Of a DNA stretch of 13,031 nt, positions 1,494 through 8,090 are shown piece after piece; position 1 is the stretch's first letter, and each line of letters starts with the position of its first letter. The DNA comes from a virus, in UHGV virus genome UHGV-0124295. One strand, 5' to 3'. Both the position numbers and the translations under genes were made by a program. Below the pieces are notes generated by a model. The model made no database searches. It had not been told where the DNA came from and saw only the letters and a program-made list of their open reading frames with translations.

Positions 1494-2362
1494 GCAGCTT
1501 CCCTCCCGAAGTCGAAATAAAGCTGCCCTCCAAATATTTCGCATGACTCAGAACAAGAGCCGGTATCGAATCTTTTAGCTCGTACCATGTCCTGATACAG
1601 GGCTTGATAATCATTTTCTGAATACATTTTCGCGATACCATCCAGCGACATTCTTCCTCGGTACATAATCTCCTTTGGTGTTTCCCGATGTCCGTCACGC
1701 ACATGCGATCCCGTGATGACCTCATTAAAAACACGCTGCAATCCCTCCTCATCTTTACAGGCAAGTCCGATTTTTTGCGTTGATTTTTTAATGCAGAATA
1801 TGCAGTTACCGAGATGTTCCGGTATTTGCAAATCGAATGGTTGTTGCTTCCACCATGCGAGGATATCTTCCTTCTCAAAGTCTGACAGTTCAGCAAGATA
1901 TCTGATTCCAGGCTTTGGCTTTAGCCGCTTCGGTTCATCAGCTCTGATGCCAATCCACGTGGTGTAATTCCCTCGCCCGAAATGGTCATCACAGTATTTG
2001 GTGAAGGGAACGAGTTTTAATCTGTCAGTGCAGAACGCGCCGCCGACGTATGGAGTGCCATATTTTTTTACCATATCGATAAATGGCTTCAGAACAGGCA
2101 GTCGCGTCTGAATATCCTTTGGTTCCCATACCGTATAACCATTTGGCTGCCCAAGCTCTGGGTTGATATCAACCTGCAATACGGTGAGCGGTATATCCCA
2201 GAACTTCACAACTTCCCTGACAAACCGATATGTCATTGGATGTTCACAACCTGTATCCATGAAAACGTAATGCACGTCTTCACCTGCCCGTCGCTTTTGC
2301 TCCATTAGCCAGAGCAAATATGCTGACGTCCTGCCACCGGAGAAACTAACGACATTTATCAT
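1490..2362 (-). CDS. ninC: NinC, PAPS-reductase-like/phosphoadenosine phosphosulfate reductase family protein (290 aa)
   Basis: Track ORF 1490..2422; the true start is the internal [18 protein letters not shown]... at 2362..2360, which overlaps the ninB stop (ATGA). From memory near-identical to lambda NinC. Confidence 0.85.
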
Positions 2363-2799
2363 GCAGCCCTGTCTCCCCATCGCGCTTTCCACTCCAGAGC
2401 CAGTCGCGCTTCGTCTGACCACTTAACGCCACGCTCTGTACCGAATGCCTGTATAAGCTCTAATAGCTCCGCAAATTCGCTTACACGCATCCTGCTGGTT
2501 GACTGGCCTATTACCACAAAGCCATTCCCGGCAAGGTTAGGAACAACATCCTGCTGCTTTAATGCTGCGGTAAACACACACTTCCAGCTTTCTGCATCCA
2601 GCCAGCGACCATGCCATTCAACCTGACGAGAGACGTCACCAAGGCAAGCCCAAAGCTTTCGATTCTGGTCTAAGCTGCGGTTGCGTTCCTGAATGGTTAC
2701 TACGATTGGTTTGGTTGGGTCTGGAAGGATTTGCTGTACCGCGTGAATAGCGTTTTGCTGATGTGCTGGAGATCGAATTTCAAAGGTTAGTTTTTTCAT
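2359..2799 (-). CDS. ninB: NinB/Orf recombination mediator (146 aa)
   Basis: MKKLTFEIRSPAHQQNAIHAVQQILPDPTKP... matches lambda NinB (Orf) from memory. RBS GAGGGA lies upstream of ATG 2799. Confidence 0.9.
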   Translation of the reverse strand: MKKLTFEIRSPAHQQNAIHAVQQILPDPTKPIVVTIQERNRSLDQNRKLWACLGDVSRQVEWHGRWLDAESWKCVFTAALKQQDVVPNLAGNGFVVIGQSTSRMRVSEFAELLELIQAFGTERGVKWSDEARLALEWKARWGDRAA

Positions 2800-2992
2800 G
2801 ACTTCCCTCTCTAACAGATTTCAGGTTATTCCACTCCGTTACCGCACTGCGATAATTCGCGGCCGCCACAGCAGCGTGGTTAGCGCAGTAGATTTGGCAC
2901 CCGTTCTCCATGTCGAATATTGTCGGTGATTTTCCGCATTTACATTTTTTGGCACGCGGTGCGTCTGAACACATTCCGTTAACGGTGTCCAT
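2780..2992 (-). CDS. Hypothetical Cys-rich small protein at the ren position (70 aa)
   Basis: ORF MDTVNGMCSDAPRAKKCKCGKSPTIFDMENGCQIYCANH... with a strong RBS (GAGGGGGA, 7 nt before ATG 2992..2990). Overlaps the ninB start by 20 nt. Not similar to lambda Ren as far as I can recall. Confidence 0.5.
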   Translation of the reverse strand: MDTVNGMCSDAPRAKKCKCGKSPTIFDMENGCQIYCANHAAVAAANYRSAVTEWNNLKSVREGSHEKTNL

Positions 2993-3017
2993 CAGAATCC
3001 CCCTCGTTCTTAATCCA

Positions 3018-3046
3018 ATAAAAAAGGGCTACTGTGTAAATAGCCC
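3018..3046 (-). terminator. Rho-independent terminator after the helicase gene (tR2-like position)
   Basis: On the minus strand: GGGCTA-(9-nt loop)-TAGCCC followed by TTTTTTAT; lies between the helicase stop (3074) and the 70-aa ORF start (2992). Confidence 0.55.
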
Positions 3047-3073
3047 ATGTTATTATCTCAGTGATGTAGATGG

Positions 3074-4450
3074 TCATACGTCAGCCCCTTGTGCATATCG
3101 TCTGCCACGTGCAGCGGGTGCATTTGATGTTGTGCAAATCTGTCTGGCTTCATCCTGATCACATGCAACAAAGTGTCCGTTGCAGAACCGCTGGTAAACC
3201 GTACCAAGCGAGCCAAAACGGTTTTTCGTCACAATGATTTCAGCAAATGGCGCGGCGCTACTGTTCTCGTCATATACCGCTTCCCGATAGAGCATGATGA
3301 TTGAGTCTGCGTCCTGTTCAATGCTTCCTGAATCACGCAAATCTGCGTTTGTCGGGCGTTTGTTTGGTCGCTTCTCAACATCGCGTGAAAGCTGACTTAG
3401 GGAGATAACTGGCGTTTTCAGGTCTTTCGCCATCGCCTTCAGGCTTCCGGAGATGTGAGCAATTGCGAGGTCGTTGCGGTCTGCTTTCGGCTTCTCAATC
3501 AGGCCAAGATAATCCGCCATGATGAGTGAGAGGTTTGGATTTTCCTGTTTGTGCCGTTCTGCGATTGAGCGAATTTCTTCGACCGATAACCGCGAGGCAT
3601 CGACTACCCATACATCCAAATCTGCAAGCTGACTCATGCCGTTAGCAACACGCGCCCAGCCTTCGTCATCCATCGATGCAGGATTTCGCAGTACGCTAAC
3701 CGACATCCTCCCGGCGTTGGCAATGCTTCGCTCTGCAATCTGCAATGCGCTCATTTCCATCGAGAAAATCAACACTCCGCGCCGGACATCAGAACCAGGA
3801 ATAACGCGGCTTGCCACGCCTTCGGCAATCTTCAGCGCCAGTTCGGTTTTCCCCATACCAGGACGAGCGGCGATAATCACCAGGTCTTCTGCGTTCATCC
3901 CTCCGGTGATAGCGTCAAGTTCTTCGATTCCGGTCTTCAGGGTATCTGACTCTTCTCCGTTCCTCAGACGCCTGTCAAGCGTGTCAGTGTAGTCGGTGAT
4001 GATTTCCCCTAACCGTACAGGTTTAACCTCGTCACGGGGCTTTCTGATGGCTGAAAGACGCTTTACAAGCTCATCCATCGCCTGACTCGATGCGTCGATG
4101 GTTCCGCTCTGAATTGGTTCACGCATTTCATCCATGATTTCCAGCACCAGACGGCGGTGATAGTTATCCGCGACCATTCCGGCATATCCCTTCAGGTTTG
4201 CGGCACTCGGGCAGTTTTTGCTGGTCATCAGGATTGACGTGAAATGCTCCTCTCCGCACGCCTCGGCAACCATCAGCGCGTCGATTAGGTTTCTGTTTCT
4301 CGCCTGCTTGCGGATAACCTCGAAGGCTTTCCGGTAGAGCGGAATTGAAAACGCTTCCGGCTCAAGCGTTGCCAGAACGTCACTGGCGGTTGGAGTTAAT
4401 CCACCAATCAGCAGGCCACCGATAACGCTCGCTTCGATATCCTGTCTCAT
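3074..4450 (-). CDS. Replicative DNA helicase, DnaB family (P22 gp12-like)
   Basis: 458-aa ORF with Walker A ([16 protein letters not shown]) and DnaB-like N-terminal and RecA-like C-terminal architecture. ATG 4450..4448 overlaps the stop of the O-like gene (ATGA). Confidence 0.85.
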
Positions 4451-5679: not shown

Positions 5680-5747
5680 CGTTGGATGTTATTAAAATTC
5701 CATTTGGATTTGTTCAGAACGCTCGGTTGCCGCCGGGCGTTTTTTGT
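5680..5747 (+). ncRNA. oop: oop-like antisense RNA ending in a t_oop-like intrinsic terminator
   Basis: Plus-strand CCATTTGGATTTGTTCAGAACGCTCGGTTGCCGCCGGGCGTTTTTTGTT matches the 3' half of lambda OOP RNA from memory (terminator hairpin 5720-5739 plus T-run). A TATAAT -10 candidate lies at 5669-5674. The 5' end is estimated; the RNA is antisense to the cII 3' end. Confidence 0.5.
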
Positions 5748-5985
5748 TGGTGAGAATCGAAGCAACTTGTCGTGCCAATCGAGCCATATCGTCGTCAACG
5801 ACGCCCCATTCAAGAACAGCAAGCAGCATTGAGAACTTTGGAATCCAGTCCCTCTTCCACCTGCTGATCTGCGACTTATCAACTCCAACAGCTTCCGCTG
5901 TCTTCTCAGTTCCAAGCATTGCGATTTTGTTAAGCAACGCACTCTCGATTCTTAGAGCCTCGTTGCGTTTGTTTGCACGAACCAT
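5692..5985 (-). CDS. cII: Transcriptional activator CII
   Basis: Track ORF 5692..6072; the true start is the internal MVRANKRNEALRIESALLNKIAMLGTEKTAEAVGVDKSQISRWKRDWIPKF... at 5985, which from memory is essentially lambda CII (97 aa). Lambda-like RBS context TTAAGGAAATACTTACATATG. Confidence 0.9.
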   Translation of the reverse strand: MVRANKRNEALRIESALLNKIAMLGTEKTAEAVGVDKSQISRWKRDWIPKFSMLLAVLEWGVVDDDMARLARQVASILTNKKRPAATERSEQIQMEF

Positions 5986-5995
5986 ATGTAAGTAT
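5963..5995 (+). promoter_or_regulatory. pRE-like CII-dependent promoter (TTGC-N6-TTGC)
   Basis: TTGCGTTTGTTTGC at 5963-5976 on the plus strand, inside the cII 5' end and oriented toward cro/c2, as for lambda pRE. The -10 is not well defined. Confidence 0.45.
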
Positions 5996-6042
5996 TTCCT
6001 TAACAAATAAGAAGTTATGCGCATCAACTTATGCGCGTTGTA

Positions 6043-6086
6043 TTCCCGCATTTCGGCGGGAATGAGGACCATGACTGTTAAAGAGC
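6043..6086 (-). promoter_or_regulatory. nutR-like site (boxA GCTCTTTAACA plus boxB hairpin)
   Basis: Minus strand, just downstream of the cro stop: GCTCTTTAACA (matches the rrn/nut boxA consensus), a 13-nt spacer, then hairpin TTCCCGC-CGAAAT-GCGGGAA. Nearly identical to the module downstream of pL. Confidence 0.6.
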
Positions 6087-6093
6087 AATTTGC

Positions 6094-6279
6094 TTATGCC
6101 GCTTTGCGGTAAGCGCTTTCTTGATACTTCAGGGCGCCAGCTGTAACGACTTCCAGTCGATAGGCGTCTTTCTCTGGGATGACTTCCTTCCACTGAGAGA
6201 CTGCTGCGTCGCTAATGCCTAACGCTTTAGCTACAGCACGCTGGGTTCCGAAGTGGTCGATAACATCTTTCTTGTACAT
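6094..6279 (-). CDS. cro: Cro repressor (P22-type)
   Basis: 61 aa, MYKKDVIDHFGTQRAVAKALGISDAAVSQWKEVIPEKDAYRLEVVTAGALKYQESAYRKAA, matching P22 Cro from memory. RBS GGAGCGAG; divergent from c2. Confidence 0.85.
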   Translation of the reverse strand: MYKKDVIDHFGTQRAVAKALGISDAAVSQWKEVIPEKDAYRLEVVTAGALKYQESAYRKAA

Positions 6280-6293
6280 AGACTCGCTCCGAA

Positions 6294-6359
6294 ATTAAAG
6301 AACACTTAAATTATCCACTAAAGGAATCTTAAGTCAAGTTTATTTAAGATGTCTTAACT
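6294..6359. promoter_or_regulatory. oR operator cluster with divergent pR/pRM (three 18-bp P22-type operators)
   Basis: ATTAAAGAACACTTAAAT (6294-6311), ACTAAAGGAATCTTAAGT (6317-6334), ATTTAAGATGTCTTAACT (6342-6359). Minus-strand pR: -35 TTGACT (rc of 6332-6337), 17-nt spacer, -10 ATAATT (rc of 6309-6314). Confidence 0.65.
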
Positions 6360-7010
6360 ATGAAAACTCAATTGATGGGAGAGCGCATTCGCGCTCGGAG
6401 AAAAGAACTCAAGATCAGACAGGCCGCACTTGGAAAGATGGTCGGCGTGTCTAATGTTGCCATATCTCAGTGGGAACGCTCTGAGACAGAGCCAAATGGA
6501 GAGAATCTTCTCGCCCTGGCTAATGCGTTGAAGTGTTCCCCTGACTATCTGATGAAAGGAGAGGAAAGTCTTTCAAACATTGCCTATCACAGTAGGCATG
6601 ATCCAAGAGGGTCATACCCTCTGATTAGCTGGGTGAGCGCAGGATGCTGGATGGAAGCTGTAGAACCATATCATAAGCGTGCAATAGATAACTGGTACGA
6701 TACAACCGTAGACTGTTCAGAAGATTCGTTTTGGTTGGACGTGAAGGGAGACTCAATGACGGCTCCGGCCGGTCTCAGTATCCCTGAAGGAATGATAATA
6801 CTCGTCGATCCTGAAGTAGAGCCGCGTAACGGGAAACTGGTAGTTGCAAAGCTCGAAGGAGAAAACGAGGCAACTTTCAAGAAGTTAGTTATTGATGCAG
6901 GCAGGAAGTTTCTAAAACCACTTAACCCACAATATCCGATGATCGAGATCAACGGAAACTGCAAAATCATCGGCGTAGTTGTCGATGCAAAACTAGCAAA
7001 CCTTCCATAA
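6360..7010 (+). CDS. c2: Prophage repressor, P22 C2 / LexA-like S24 peptidase family
   Basis: 216 aa; N-terminal HTH (VGVSNVAISQWERSE), Ala-Gly autocleavage site (SAG) and C-terminal Ser/Lys peptidase fold (GDSM ... VVAKL). Resembles the P22 c2 repressor from memory. Confidence 0.88.
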   Translation: MKTQLMGERIRARRKELKIRQAALGKMVGVSNVAISQWERSETEPNGENLLALANALKCSPDYLMKGEESLSNIAYHSRHDPRGSYPLISWVSAGCWMEAVEPYHKRAIDNWYDTTVDCSEDSFWLDVKGDSMTAPAGLSIPEGMIILVDPEVEPRNGKLVVAKLEGENEATFKKLVIDAGRKFLKPLNPQYPMIEINGNCKIIGVVVDAKLANLP

Positions 7011-7033
7011 GGGGGCATTCGCCCCTTTTTTTA
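7011..7033 (+). terminator. Intrinsic terminator after c2
   Basis: GGGGC-ATTC-GCCCC hairpin followed by TTTTTTT immediately after the c2 stop. Confidence 0.6.
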
Positions 7034-7053
7034 TTTCCTTTAAAAATCAAAGC

Positions 7054-7129
7054 AAAACTTAAGTTACGAAAGAAAATTTAAGTTTTCTTCAAAAATACTC
7101 TTGACCATTAATTAAAGAGATCTTAAATT
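7054..7129 (+). promoter_or_regulatory. oL operators and pL promoter
   Basis: Operator-like 18-mers ATTAAAGAGATCTTAAAT (7111-7128), ATTTAAGTTTTCTTCAAA (7076-7093) and a CTTAAG-containing site near 7056-7073. -35 TTGACC (7101-7106), 17-nt spacer, -10 TAAATT (7124-7129). Confidence 0.55.
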
Positions 7130-7175
7130 TAAGCCATCAGCAGGACGCTGGAAGCCAAACGGAACAGATTGGCAG

Positions 7176-7217
7176 GCTCTTTAACATTGATGGGATTGTC
7201 CCGCCGAAATGCGGGAA
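7176..7217 (+). promoter_or_regulatory. nutL-like site (boxA GCTCTTTAACA plus boxB hairpin)
   Basis: GCTCTTTAACA (7176-7186), a 12-nt spacer, then TCCCGC-CGAAAT-GCGGGAA (7199-7217); same module as nutR but on the opposite strand. Confidence 0.6.
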
Positions 7218-7527
7218 CCAAAGAGTAGTTGGCTTTGGGGTGACGTGAAGTGCAGCTGCACGACGGCAACCGGAAGATAAGCACCCGGCGCGTCACCGCC
7301 AAAGTCAATTCCATAGGCGAAATGCAGCCGCCAAACACAGCCAATGCTGCACATGCAACAGGAGGATTTATGTGAATGCATAACTTCAAAACCGAGGTTA
7401 ATTAAATCTCTCGATCCGAGCATTGACCTATTAGGTGGCGAGATGCTCTTTCTGCCCCTCAGTTCGAGGGGCCAGAAACCACTTTGCAATCACTATCAAT
7501 TCCAAAGTTGTTTCATCGGAGGTCAAC

Positions 7528-7800
7528 ATGACAGTAGTCATTACATATCTGGCTGACGATAACACCAGAAATCGCCGCAGAGCACGCAGACAGGCTCAAC
7601 GTGAACAGGCAATGCAAGAACAGCGACTGGCGCGAAAGATTGCGCTAAAGCTCTCTGGTTGCGTCAGAGCAGATAAAGCAGCATCACTCGGAAGCCTTCG
7701 CTGCAAGAAGGCAGATGAATGCAGCGGAAGTATTTGCCTGCCAAACGTAGCCATTTACACGGCAGGCTACCGGAAATCAAAACAACTGACGGCGAGGTAA
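7528..7800 (+). CDS. N: N-like transcription antitermination protein (P22 gp24-like)
   Basis: Track ORF 7435..7800; the real start is ATG 7528 with RBS GGAGGT (7518-7523). MTVVITYLADDNTRNRRRARRQAQREQAM... has an arginine-rich motif; the C-terminal ...GYRKSKQLTAR resembles P22 gp24 from memory. Confidence 0.72.
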   Translation: MTVVITYLADDNTRNRRRARRQAQREQAMQEQRLARKIALKLSGCVRADKAASLGSLRCKKADECSGSICLPNVAIYTAGYRKSKQLTAR

Positions 7801-7803
7801 GTG

Positions 7804-8028
7804 ATGAATCAGACATACATTCCATCATGCTTGAGAAATCTGCCAAAGCAGAAAGCAAAGCCCCGCAAGCAAGCCATAAAGGACGCTAAGGCAGAGGTTA
7901 TTGATCAAGCAATACAATTGCTCAGGGAGGAGTTAAGAAGTGGCAAGCTAGAAGGAATGATGATGCCCTATCAGCGCGGATATCTATCGGCGATTAGTAA
8001 GTTGGAAGTATTGAAGAGTGAATTATGA
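7804..8028 (+). CDS. Hypothetical basic helical protein (74 aa), ral/gene-17 slot
   Basis: ATG 7804 with RBS GAGG (7794-7797); the track start at 7801 is a GTG. No recognisable family. Confidence 0.5.
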   Translation: MNQTYIPSCLRNLPKQKAKPRKQAIKDAKAEVIDQAIQLLREELRSGKLEGMMMPYQRGYLSAISKLEVLKSEL

Positions 8029-8090
8029 GCTATCTGGAATTTCCGGATGGTTCATTGTTTTGGCAGCAAACCACTTATTTGAGGTGAGAT

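Follow-up and report, generated by a model that had tools for sequence, protein, structure and literature searches.

Nearly identical nut sites in both early operons of a lambdoid prophage carrying an HK620-type N protein

Results

Organization of the immunity region

The window examined here is the whole 13,031-nucleotide stretch of viral DNA. Judged from its gene content, it is a lambdoid immunity region in which a lambda-like cII is followed by imm21-like cro and cI genes and then by N. The cI gene (6360..7010, plus strand) encodes a repressor with Pfam matches to an HTH domain and an S24 peptidase, and its DNA is ~86% identical to that of phage 21, HK629 and mEp235 and 96-99% identical to that of CUS-3, JEP4 and N7. 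On the minus strand, cro (6094..6279; P22_Cro family, PF14549, E = 9e-28) lies directly upstream of the right-hand nut site (nutR), and a lambda-type cII (5692..5985; PF05269, E = 2e-48) is the first gene past nutR and a tR1-like hairpin. Together, cI and cro make up an imm21-like immunity module enclosed by the nut sites. The gene for the 90-residue N antitermination protein (7528..7800, plus strand) is preceded by GGAGG, 5 nt before its ATG.

Scanning for consensus promoters placed a pL-like sigma-70 site (TTGACC-17-TAAATT, 9/12 matches) at 7101..7129 on the plus strand, which would transcribe the left-hand nut site (nutL) and N, and a pR-like site (TTGACT-16-GATAAT, 10/12) at 6310..6337 on the minus strand, from which cro, nutR and cII would be transcribed. 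The phage 21 and HK620 records, which are homologous here, annotate pL and OL1 at the former position and pR and the OR operators at the latter. A candidate tL1 (8025..8055, plus strand) was found by terminator scan as the first intrinsic-terminator-like hairpin after N in the pL operon. In the predicted fold of 5986-6092 on the minus strand, a putative tR1-like hairpin (GCGCAU-AAGUUG-AUGCGC, 6019..6036) precedes a U-rich tract; the HK620 record annotates tR1 directly 3' of nutR. An Rfam scan of the whole window at E <= 1 returned no nut family, its sole hit being a chance match of an Enterococcus sRNA over the cI terminator.

Two boxA-boxB modules, one in each early operon

Inspection of the two early operons reveals a module made up of GCTCTTTAACA, a spacer of 12-14 nt and TCCCGC-CGAAAT-GCGGGA, located at 7176-7216 on the plus strand and 6044-6086 on the minus strand. 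The original prediction had placed near-identical modules after pL and after cro, and this was borne out: the pattern GCTCTTTAACA-N(10-16)-TCCCGCCGAAATGCGGGA has exactly two exact matches in the whole window, and 200 dinucleotide-preserving shuffles gave a mean of 0.00 matches, with two matches in 0/200. Window-wide, the 18-mer at up to three mismatches and the 11-mer boxA at up to one mismatch are each found at the two module sites only. The perfect inverted repeat spans 19 nt (TCCCGCCGAAATGCGGGAA), one base past the 18-mer, with arms at 6043-6061 and 7199-7217; since the identity reaches 19 nt, the outer coordinates first proposed for the modules were right. The proposed spacer of 12-13 nt held at nutL, where it measures 12 nt, and failed at nutR, where it measures 14 nt with a 6-bp stem. 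If the nutR stem is counted as the 8-bp AUUCCCGC/GCGGGAAU helix of the predicted fold, the spacer is 12 nt at both sites.

The nutL copy lies 3' of pL, ~47 nt downstream of the promoter-like site, and 5' of N. Its boxA (7176..7186, plus strand) matches GCTCTTTAACA exactly and is a predicted NusB-NusE (S10) site on the RNA, and its boxB (7199..7216, plus strand), in which 7199-7204 pairs with 7211-7216 around the loop CGAAAU (7205-7210), is the predicted binding site for the arginine-rich motif (ARM) of N. Downstream of nutL, a boxC-like element, GGCTTTGGGGTG, can be read at 7231..7242 (plus strand). Its core, GGCTTTGG, also follows the lambda-type nutL of mEp213 and the HK620-type nutL of Enterobacter and other hosts, with a looser match in phage 21; the abstract of one study names boxC as a component of the lambda nut (PMC2724277). 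The nutR copy lies between cro and tR1/cII on the minus strand. Its boxA (6076..6086) is again an exact match, and its boxB (6042..6063) carries the same CGAAAU loop on the 8-bp stem, with the core 18-mer at 6044-6061. The expected rrn-type consensus boxA is thus present as exact GCTCTTTAACA at both sites, and each boxA, with its upstream flank, is identical to the corresponding annotated boxA-L or boxA-R of phage 21.

Each early operon therefore holds one copy, on its transcribed strand, with boxA (consensus GCUCUUUA...) 5' of the hairpin at a spacing of 12 or 14 nt, against an expected ~8-14 nt. The proposed placement and orientation of the modules as nutL and nutR fits the promoter-like sites and the identities of cro and N. 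By sequence comparison, these repeated modules are nutL and nutR, the N-utilisation (nut) sites for antitermination in a lambda-like prophage.

Folding and covariation of the boxB hairpin

Folding of both sites, the check called for by the original prediction, returned the CGAAAU hairpin as the minimum-free-energy structure in both contexts, in agreement with the GC-rich stem and 6-nt CGAAAT loop that had been proposed. Taken alone, the 18-mer folds at -9.7 kcal/mol (z = -2.9). The 56-58 nt contexts give weak z-scores (-0.75 and -1.3), as one would predict where a single short hairpin lies within a longer stretch. Across 17 distinct hairpins of two classes (HK620 and phage 21), double changes occur at 7/7 stem pairs and 95.8% of stem cells are paired, compared with 29-50% in slid registers; neither the observed paired percentage nor the covariation score was reached by any of 500 shuffles. 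Among phages, it is the pairing of boxB and not its sequence that is conserved. The compensatory changes between the classes support a hairpin of 7 bp carrying six loop nucleotides. Most of this signal arises when the phage 21 class is compared, because the HK620-class boxB barely varies. Among HK620-class members the 18-mer hardly changes: one U-A pair has become U-G, and one G-C pair has become A-U alongside a C-C mismatch, so that within-class covariation is uninformative.

In the solved phage 21 boxB, the CUAACC hexaloop adopts a GNRA-like fold (UAAC turn) flanked by a C-C pair (PMC12550061). The CGAAAU loop is probably built alike: its GAAA, which fits the canonical GNRA pattern, would form the 4-nt turn and stack on a C-U pair of two pyrimidines. 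Pairing of boxA with the cII Shine-Dalgarno region was also considered as a general helix and was rejected for its patchy occurrence among nutR leaders. This helix is present in the HK620-type nutR leader, weak in Enterobacter and absent in lambda, L087, L090 and most phage-21-type nutR leaders.

The N protein is a three-part mosaic

The protein encoded at 7528-7800 belongs to the N family (Pfam PF25694 N_peptide, E = 4e-14) and is 95.6% identical to HK620 N over all 90 residues and 97.8% identical to JEP4 N. Its ARM (residues 9-29, ADDNTRNRRRARRQAQREQAM; 7552..7614, plus strand) is a predicted boxB-binding helix and, with invariant columns, is conserved more strongly than any other segment in a set of N proteins whose identity otherwise ranges over 57-94%. 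In Enterobacter, Salmonella and other hosts, a range taken from a protein search and contig look-ups, the boxB loop and the ARM are invariant and the rest of N drops to 57-73% identity. A profile search of genome contigs with the ARM alignment confirmed at least two loci. At position 13 of the ARM, the window has Thr where HK620 and most relatives have Ala.

The ARM had been described as lambda-like and the C-terminus as P22-like, and both descriptions stand: the best local alignment of the N-terminus is to the lambda N ARM, and 18 of 24 C-terminal residues match the P22-like gp24. The middle of the protein, missed in that description, is phage-21-like, so N is a mosaic of three parts. The first half of the ARM also aligns with the phage 21 ARM, and A13, R16 and A19-R21 are nearly invariant across classes. 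A PDB sequence search with N recovered only spurious RNF168 matches and no sequence-related solved structure.

Co-inheritance of the ARM with both boxB hairpins

To relate the ARM to its hairpins, 174 loci were surveyed. CGAAAU loops are present at 99/99 HK620-type N loci in which both sites were found, and CUAAYN loops at 65/65 phage-21-type N loci. Mixed ARM/boxB sets occur at none of these 164 loci, which span 11 immunity clusters and which, being related and chosen by N similarity, do not count as independent events. The ARM and the two boxB hairpins travel together as three matched parts, which flank the immunity genes and lie up to 2.8 kb apart.

Around this set, free reassortment affects the immunity module, the flanking sequences on the cro and cII sides, and the remainder of N. 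The imm21-like cluster holds both classes (45 and 51 loci), each with its own boxB at both sites; the HK620-type boxB-R is flanked by eight cro-side and four cII-side sequence clusters, always with the same ARM; and both ARM classes are joined to several N C-terminal modules. An N protein with an N-terminal ARM lies just downstream of nutL, and its ARM class tracks the boxB class throughout the 164 loci. The nutL boxB 18-mer class accompanies the HK620-type ARM wherever nutL was detected (103/107 loci), a linkage that could be physical and not functional, since nutL is only 148-602 nt from N. The perfect co-occurrence supports the distinct N-ARM/boxB pair that had been proposed, in which the ARM would bind this hairpin.

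Discussion

Nature of the sites and alternative explanations

We consider it very probable that the window contains the nutL and nutR of a lambdoid prophage with an HK620-type N antitermination system. A narrower doubt concerns specificity. The nut sites may be real without the HK620-type N and boxB forming a specificity of their own, the ARM cross-reacting with the lambda (GAAAA) or phage 21 (CUAACC) boxB and co-occurrence reflecting linkage and descent. Such cross-reaction would suit an ARM whose best local alignment is the lambda ARM and whose first half aligns with that of phage 21, the GNRA-like folds of all three loop types, the loop positions 1, 3 and 4 common to the window and phage 21 hairpins, and the physical nearness of nutL to N. 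We nevertheless judge it unlikely, given 0/164 mixed loci despite repeated reassortment of immunity, cro side, cII side and the rest of N, and given that even within the imm21-like cluster each ARM class keeps its own boxB at both sites. In mEp213, moreover, the HK620-type N, which is without an intact cognate boxB, is accompanied by a complete lambda-type N/nutL/nutR set, so that the orphan N need not function there.

The remaining explanations deny the hairpins a role in N recognition, and both were rejected as their main role. The 19-nt inverted repeat could act mainly as DNA, that is, as a boundary sequence for homologous exchange of immunity cassettes, with a hairpin that has no RNA role. 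The two copies do bracket cI-cro as an inverted repeat, the cI-N interval is annotated as boundary sequence bsq5 in CUS-3, module junctions fall at or adjoining nut sites, and the mEp213 recombination junction falls inside boxB. We regard this explanation as very improbable, because it leaves unaccounted for the fixed boxA-spacer-hairpin order, which in both operons lies on the transcribed strand, the compensatory stem changes that separate the classes, and a boxB class that follows the ARM and not the adjacent DNA. Less credible still are ordinary terminators, or RNase III or other processing sites, unrelated to N: the stems are G+C-rich, located in leader regions and surrounded by larger predicted structured leaders, but neither hairpin has a U-tract 3' of it, the terminator scan made no call at either, and both stand at a fixed distance after a consensus boxA and match annotated nut sites. 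A role in DNA-level exchange and an RNA role as nut sites are not mutually exclusive.

Proposed mechanism

For these nut sites we infer a single scheme that covers the fold of the loop, the binding of the RNA, the recruitment of Nus factors and antitermination itself. The pL and pR transcripts would each carry a boxA-boxB module, whose boxA RNA (GCUCUUUAACA, the same sequence as the boxA of E. coli rrn) would recruit NusB-NusE. The boxB hairpin, with its 6-8 bp G+C-rich stem and CGAAAU loop, would be bound by the arginine-rich helix of N (residues ~9-29), and the phage-21-like middle and P22/933W-like C-terminus of N would engage NusA and RNA polymerase. Polymerase modified in this manner would pass the tR1-like signal, which lies ahead of cII and is the first that N would need to overcome, and would also read past the terminators downstream of N.

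Possibly, although we stop short of calling it probable, the HK620-type pair represents a fourth N-boxB code, orthogonal to those of lambda, P22 and phage 21, in which a GAAA tetraloop on a C-U mismatch is read by a Trp-less ARM with a phage-21-like first half and a lambda-like second half.

Significance

The reading of these sites is correct but ordinary: they are a known phage control element. Its value as a discovery is small, since the HK620 record already carries these sites and the mechanism is the textbook one of lambda. What remains of use is the comparative result, an ARM and both boxB hairpins kept as a matched set amid reassorting neighbours. About 9% of complete E. coli genomes contain the exact modules, and the searchable literature yielded no experiment, binding study or structure study on the CGAAAU boxB/HK620-type N pair, which makes this class a cheap and well-motivated target. 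The pair could extend the lambda, P22 and phage 21 series of peptide-RNA recognition and, if truly orthogonal, would supply an RNA-tethering tag ready for use, together with a natural intermediate in which to follow the change of specificity between ARM and hairpin.

Comparison with known systems

The GenBank record of coliphage HK620 (AF335538, annotated in 2001) labels identical sequences as putative nutL and nutR beside its N gene, and the window matches these three features, a correspondence that the original prediction missed. The two nutL sequences are the same at every base from boxA to the end of boxB and for about another 100 nt, and the nutR sequences from boxA to the end of the tR1-like hairpin. 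In contrast, HK620 carries a 434/L-like cI, a lambda-like cro and a different cII, and its N leader measures 148 nt versus 352 nt in the window.

Phage 21 shares with the window an rrn-identical boxA with homologous flanks on both sides, cI and cro genes ~86% identical to those here, the N middle LARKIALKLSGCVRADKAASLGSLRCKKA, and a boxB whose stem of roughly 7 bp carries a 6-nt loop, in which C1, A3 and A4 are common to both. The boxA of lambda-imm21 is identical to the E. coli rrn boxA (PMC3177189). Neither that boxA nor a 6-nt loop is therefore new in the window, a phage 21 precedent that the original prediction missed. The differences lie in the loop itself (CUAACC versus CGAAAU here), in unrelated stem sequences, in the ARM (GTAKSRYKARRAELIAERR versus DDNTRNRRRARRQAQREQ in the window) and in the N C-terminus. 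The window thus shares the boxA, flanks and N middle of phage 21 only, and falls outside the specificity class defined by the CUAACC hexaloop and the ARM GTAKSRYKARRAELIAERR.

Lambda has the same boxA-spacer-boxB order with one site per early operon, a purine-rich loop with a GAAA core, the ARM of best local similarity (TR.R.RRA..QAQ) and a cII of the same type. It differs in its weaker boxA, CGCUCUUA(A/C), and in a 5-nt loop (GAAAA/GAAGA) on a 5-bp stem, GCCCU/AGGGC, closed by U-A. Lambda N has Trp18 where the window ARM has Arg and is otherwise unrelated, and the window lies outside the class that combines this loop and stem with a Trp18 ARM.

The P22 gp24-boxB comparison was made with the P22-like phage ST104, which has a consensus-type boxA (GCUCUUUAAC) and shares 75% identity over the C-terminal 24 residues of N (GS.(C/L)LP.VA.Y.AGYRKSKQ.TAR). 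Its boxB, GCGCU-GACAA-AGCGC, and its ARM, GNAKTRRHERRRKLA, are different, and the window does not belong to the P22 specificity class of GACAA on GCGCU/AGCGC with that ARM.

In rrn leaders, a boxB-like hairpin lies 5' of boxA and N is not involved, whereas the phage order is boxA then boxB, with a phage-encoded N. The boxA sequence of the E. coli rrn leader is identical to that of the window (PMC3177189).

Two matching nut modules in the early-control region

The window carries a lambdoid early-control region in reversed orientation relative to the usual lambda one. On the minus strand lie cII (5692-5985; Phage_CII, E = 2e-48) and cro (6094-6279; P22_Cro), and on the plus strand cI (6360-7010; HTH and S24 peptidase domains) and a 90-residue N (7528-7800; Pfam N_peptide PF25694, E = 4e-14). 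Promoter-like hexamers were found by promoter scan at 7101-7129 (plus) and 6337-6310 (minus). The pattern GCTCTTTAACA-N(10-16)-TCCCGCCGAAATGCGGGA, which joins boxA to the boxB hairpin through a spacer, has just two matches in the 13-kb window, 7176-7216 (plus, nutL) and 6044-6086 (minus, nutR), and none in any of 200 dinucleotide-preserving shuffles. Beyond these modules, the window holds no further copy of the 18-nt boxB hairpin at up to three mismatches or of the 11-nt boxA at up to one. Given the hexamers at 7101-7129, the plus-strand module sits ~47 nt into the leftward early transcript; the minus-strand module lies directly 3' of cro. This is the canonical nutL/nutR layout. Folding places a second hairpin with a U-rich tract between nutR and cII (6019-6036, minus), and the terminator scan calls intrinsic-terminator-like hairpins 3' of N (8025-8055 and beyond, plus). 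A strong hairpin of the same type lies antisense to the cII 3' end (5716-5743, plus; AGAACGCTCGGTTGCCGCCGGGCGTTTTTTGTTGG), at the position of the lambda oop-like RNA annotated in HK629.

Inspection of the two hairpin copies reveals identity over 19 nt. The spacer is 12 nt at nutL and 14 nt at nutR, or 12 nt there if the stem is the 8-bp AUUCCCGC/GCGGGAAU predicted by RNA folding. In both contexts the minimum free energy (MFE) structure is a hairpin with a 6-nt CGAAAU loop, and the 18-mer folded alone reaches -9.7 kcal/mol (z = -2.9). Pattern search, shuffles and folding thus bear out the original prediction of near-identical nut modules on both strands.

The modules are annotated in coliphage HK620

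The P22-like coliphages CUS-3, JEP4, N7, IME10 and Gally share 96-99% identity with the DNA at 5990-7810, and phage 21, HK629, mEp235 and DE3 share ~86%. Over its full length the window N is 95.6% identical to that of coliphage HK620, and the same N occurs in mEp213, HK140, HK630 and others. In the HK620 record (AF335538) two features are labelled 'nutL; putative N-utilization leftward' and 'nutR; putative N-utilization rightward', and their sequences equal the window modules, flanking bases included; the modules had therefore been annotated before and are found here anew. The exact nutL module occurs in 499 and the exact nutR module in 495 of 5426 complete E. coli genomes, and an IMG/VR scan with N returned 360 relatives. 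No Rfam family covers this boxB, a structure search gave no solved structure related by sequence, and the searchable papers, which do not include the HK620 genome paper, yielded nothing on this CGAAAU boxB. Because the elements are annotated and the mechanism is textbook, the finding is already known.

Several relatives depart from this arrangement. Phage mEp213 (JQ182733; L085 = L039) has two N genes within 2200-4273, a lambda-type one (2516-2848) with lambda-type nutL and nutR (GCCCUGAAGAAGGGC, GCCCUGAAAAAGGGC) and an HK620-type one (4001-4273); the 5' half of the boxB preceding the latter is replaced (ttgccctCCGAAATGCGGGAAC, ~3625), so that a recombination junction falls inside boxB and an orphan N is left. 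In two IMG/VR loci (L048, L062) the HK620-type nutL and N are intact, but neither a nutR nor any boxA-hairpin can be recognised in the 3.8 kb upstream; these may be rearranged or defective prophages. A 4.2-kb contig with a 97% identical N (JAJXBQ010000254.1), from a metagenome-assembled genome labelled Segatella copri, is probably a mis-binned E. coli phage contig.

The ARM and boxB are inherited together

For each of 174 loci (the window, phage records, 80 IMG/VR loci retrieved with the window N, 80 with phage 21 N, and distant-N contigs), we located N, its arginine-rich motif (ARM) and the upstream boxA-hairpin modules on both strands. Among 107 loci with the HK620-type ARM (RNRRRARR), both nut sites were found in 99, and CGAAAU stands at nutL and nutR in all 99; among 67 with the phage-21-type ARM (SRYKARR), both were found in 65, all with CUAAYN at each site. 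These loci are related to one another and were chosen by N similarity, and nutL is physically near N. No mixed set of ARM and loop occurs among loci with both sites. CGAAAU is invariant in every HK620-type locus; phage-21-type loops differ among themselves at positions 5 and 6 (CUAACC, CUAACA, CUAAUC, CUAACU; L099-L107, L114, L127 and others).

The DNA between the nut sites falls into 11 clusters; 8 of these are found with HK620-type sets and 4 with phage-21-type sets. The window belongs to the imm21-like cluster, in which 45 HK620-type and 51 phage-21-type loci each carry the boxB of their class at nutL and nutR. The HK620-type boxB-R is flanked by 8 cro-side and 4 cII-side clusters, and each ARM class is joined to several N C-terminal modules. 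Because all these modules vary, the ARM is the only constant partner of both CGAAAU hairpins, with an exchangeable immunity cassette in between and a distance of up to 2.8 kb. Such constancy is what functional matching would predict, and it favours the distinct ARM-boxB pair originally proposed.

The C-terminal third of N is a separate module. N of the window, HK620 and HK629 ends in a P22/933W-like CLPNVAIYTAGYRKSKQLTAR, which matches gp24 of ST104, a P22-like phage, at 18 of 24 positions; the N of CUS-3 and of phage 21 ends in ...RQKIKLGSKPLI. Judged from its sequence, N is a three-part mosaic in which only the first part changes along with boxB. The best local alignment of the window ARM is to lambda N (DDNTRNR-RRARRQAQREQA versus DAQTRRRERRAEKQAQWKAA), which, with the ST104 match, agrees with the anticipated lambda-like ARM and P22-like C-terminus. 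The position of lambda Trp18 is Arg in the window, and the first half of the ARM aligns with that of phage 21. In the distant N proteins the ARM is the most conserved part (invariant columns). Residue 13 (7564-7566) is Thr, as in only 2 of 107 HK620-type loci, the others having Ala (DDNARN); Thr13 aligns locally with Thr5 of lambda N.

Conservation and covariation of the hairpin

The HK620-class hairpin hardly varies among its loci. In Enterobacter, Salmonella and two run assemblies, where the rest of N is only 57-73% identical, neither the loop nor the CCCGC/GCGGG core changes, and U-G replaces the basal U-A pair. A single locus (L087, 2490-2550, minus strand) has a nutR stem that departs inside the core, UCCCAC/GUCGGA, with G-C changed to A-U plus a C-C mismatch; its nutL is standard, and it is also the only locus whose ARM is altered in the QAQ segment (RRRARRALQREQ, P0031).

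Covariation was counted over 17 distinct hairpins of both classes aligned in register. Each of the 7 stem pairs varies at both of its bases, and 95.8% of cells are paired; 0 of 500 shuffles reached the observed pairing percentage or covariation score, and slid registers gave 29-50% pairing only. In the two classes alike, the loop always has C at position 1 and A at positions 3 and 4.

Candidate mechanism

The standard N mechanism is the best-supported explanation. That is to say, boxA RNA would bind NusB-NusE, boxB the ARM helix, and the rest of N would bind NusA and RNA polymerase, giving a complex predicted to read through tR1 and the pL-operon terminators. It is unlikely that the hairpins are instead terminators or processing hairpins, since no U-tract follows them and the terminator scan does not call them, and also unlikely that the module acts purely at the DNA level, with a 'boundary sequence' as its sole role. 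As to specificity, the exclusive pairing of each ARM class with its loop could reflect a fourth, orthogonal, structurally uncharacterised code for the HK620 type, a tentative reading towards which we do not quite lean; a cross-reactive specificity is possible.

Folding of the leaders

A 10-bp long-range helix is predicted from nutR to the cII start (5997-6006 with 6075-6084, minus), pairing boxA-R (UCUUUAACAG) with the cII Shine-Dalgarno (SD) region (UUGUUAAGGA) and enclosing boxB-R and the tR1-like hairpin (-29.1 kcal/mol, z = -4.0, 0/200 shuffles). A similar helix is predicted to join the N Shine-Dalgarno to the boxA of phage-21-type nutL, and a weak one in an Enterobacter locus (L086); for lambda, L087, L090 and most nutR leaders of phage-21 type, folding gives no such helix. 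The helix may be trivial, because boxA resembles an anti-SD. In the N leader, boxA-L (GCUCUUU, 7177-7183) is complementary to AAAGAGU just 3' of boxB-L (7220-7226), and MFE folds pair GCUCUU with AAGAG(U/C). L086 and L087 carry AAAGAGC as the partner, which makes every pair Watson-Crick, and the partner also persists in HK620; in short HK620-type leaders the helix encloses spacer and boxB.

The N leader measures 352 nt in the window versus 148 nt in HK620; an insert of ~205 nt (7310-7514) separates CGCCAAAGTCAAT from TCATCGGAGG. At least 12 different boxA-to-N distances, spanning 148-602 nt, occur among HK620-type loci versus 150 nt in 67/67 phage-21-type loci, and these sequences suggest that insertions are frequent in the leader, as in a hot spot.

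Comparison with phage 21

In the phage 21 record, boxA-L, nutL, boxA-R and nutR are all annotated. Phage 21 and the window share the boxA GCTCTTTAACA and, at both nut sites, the sequence 5' of it; divergence begins at the spacer, with phage 21 boxB reading UCUCAAC-CUAACC-GUUGAGA at nutL and UUCACCU-CUAACC-GGGUGAG at nutR. The N proteins share the middle region LARKIALKLSGCVRADKAASLGSLRCKKA and differ in the N-terminal 33 residues (GTAKSRYKARRAELIAERR in phage 21, DDNTRNRRRARRQAQREQ in the window). The boxA of lambda-imm21 is reported to match E. coli rrn boxA exactly, an identity whose genetic consequences are known (PMC3177189), and the phage 21 boxB loop is the 6-nt CUAACC, which in the solved complex (PDB 1NYB) adopts a GNRA-like UAAC turn next to a C-C pair (PMC12550061). 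The boxA and 6-nt loop originally singled out thus both have a precedent in phage 21. From the phage 21 structure, the simplest reading is that both boxB types would share one architecture, a 4-nt GNRA or GNRA-like turn (GAAA/UAAC) on a pyrimidine-pyrimidine pair (C-U/C-C).
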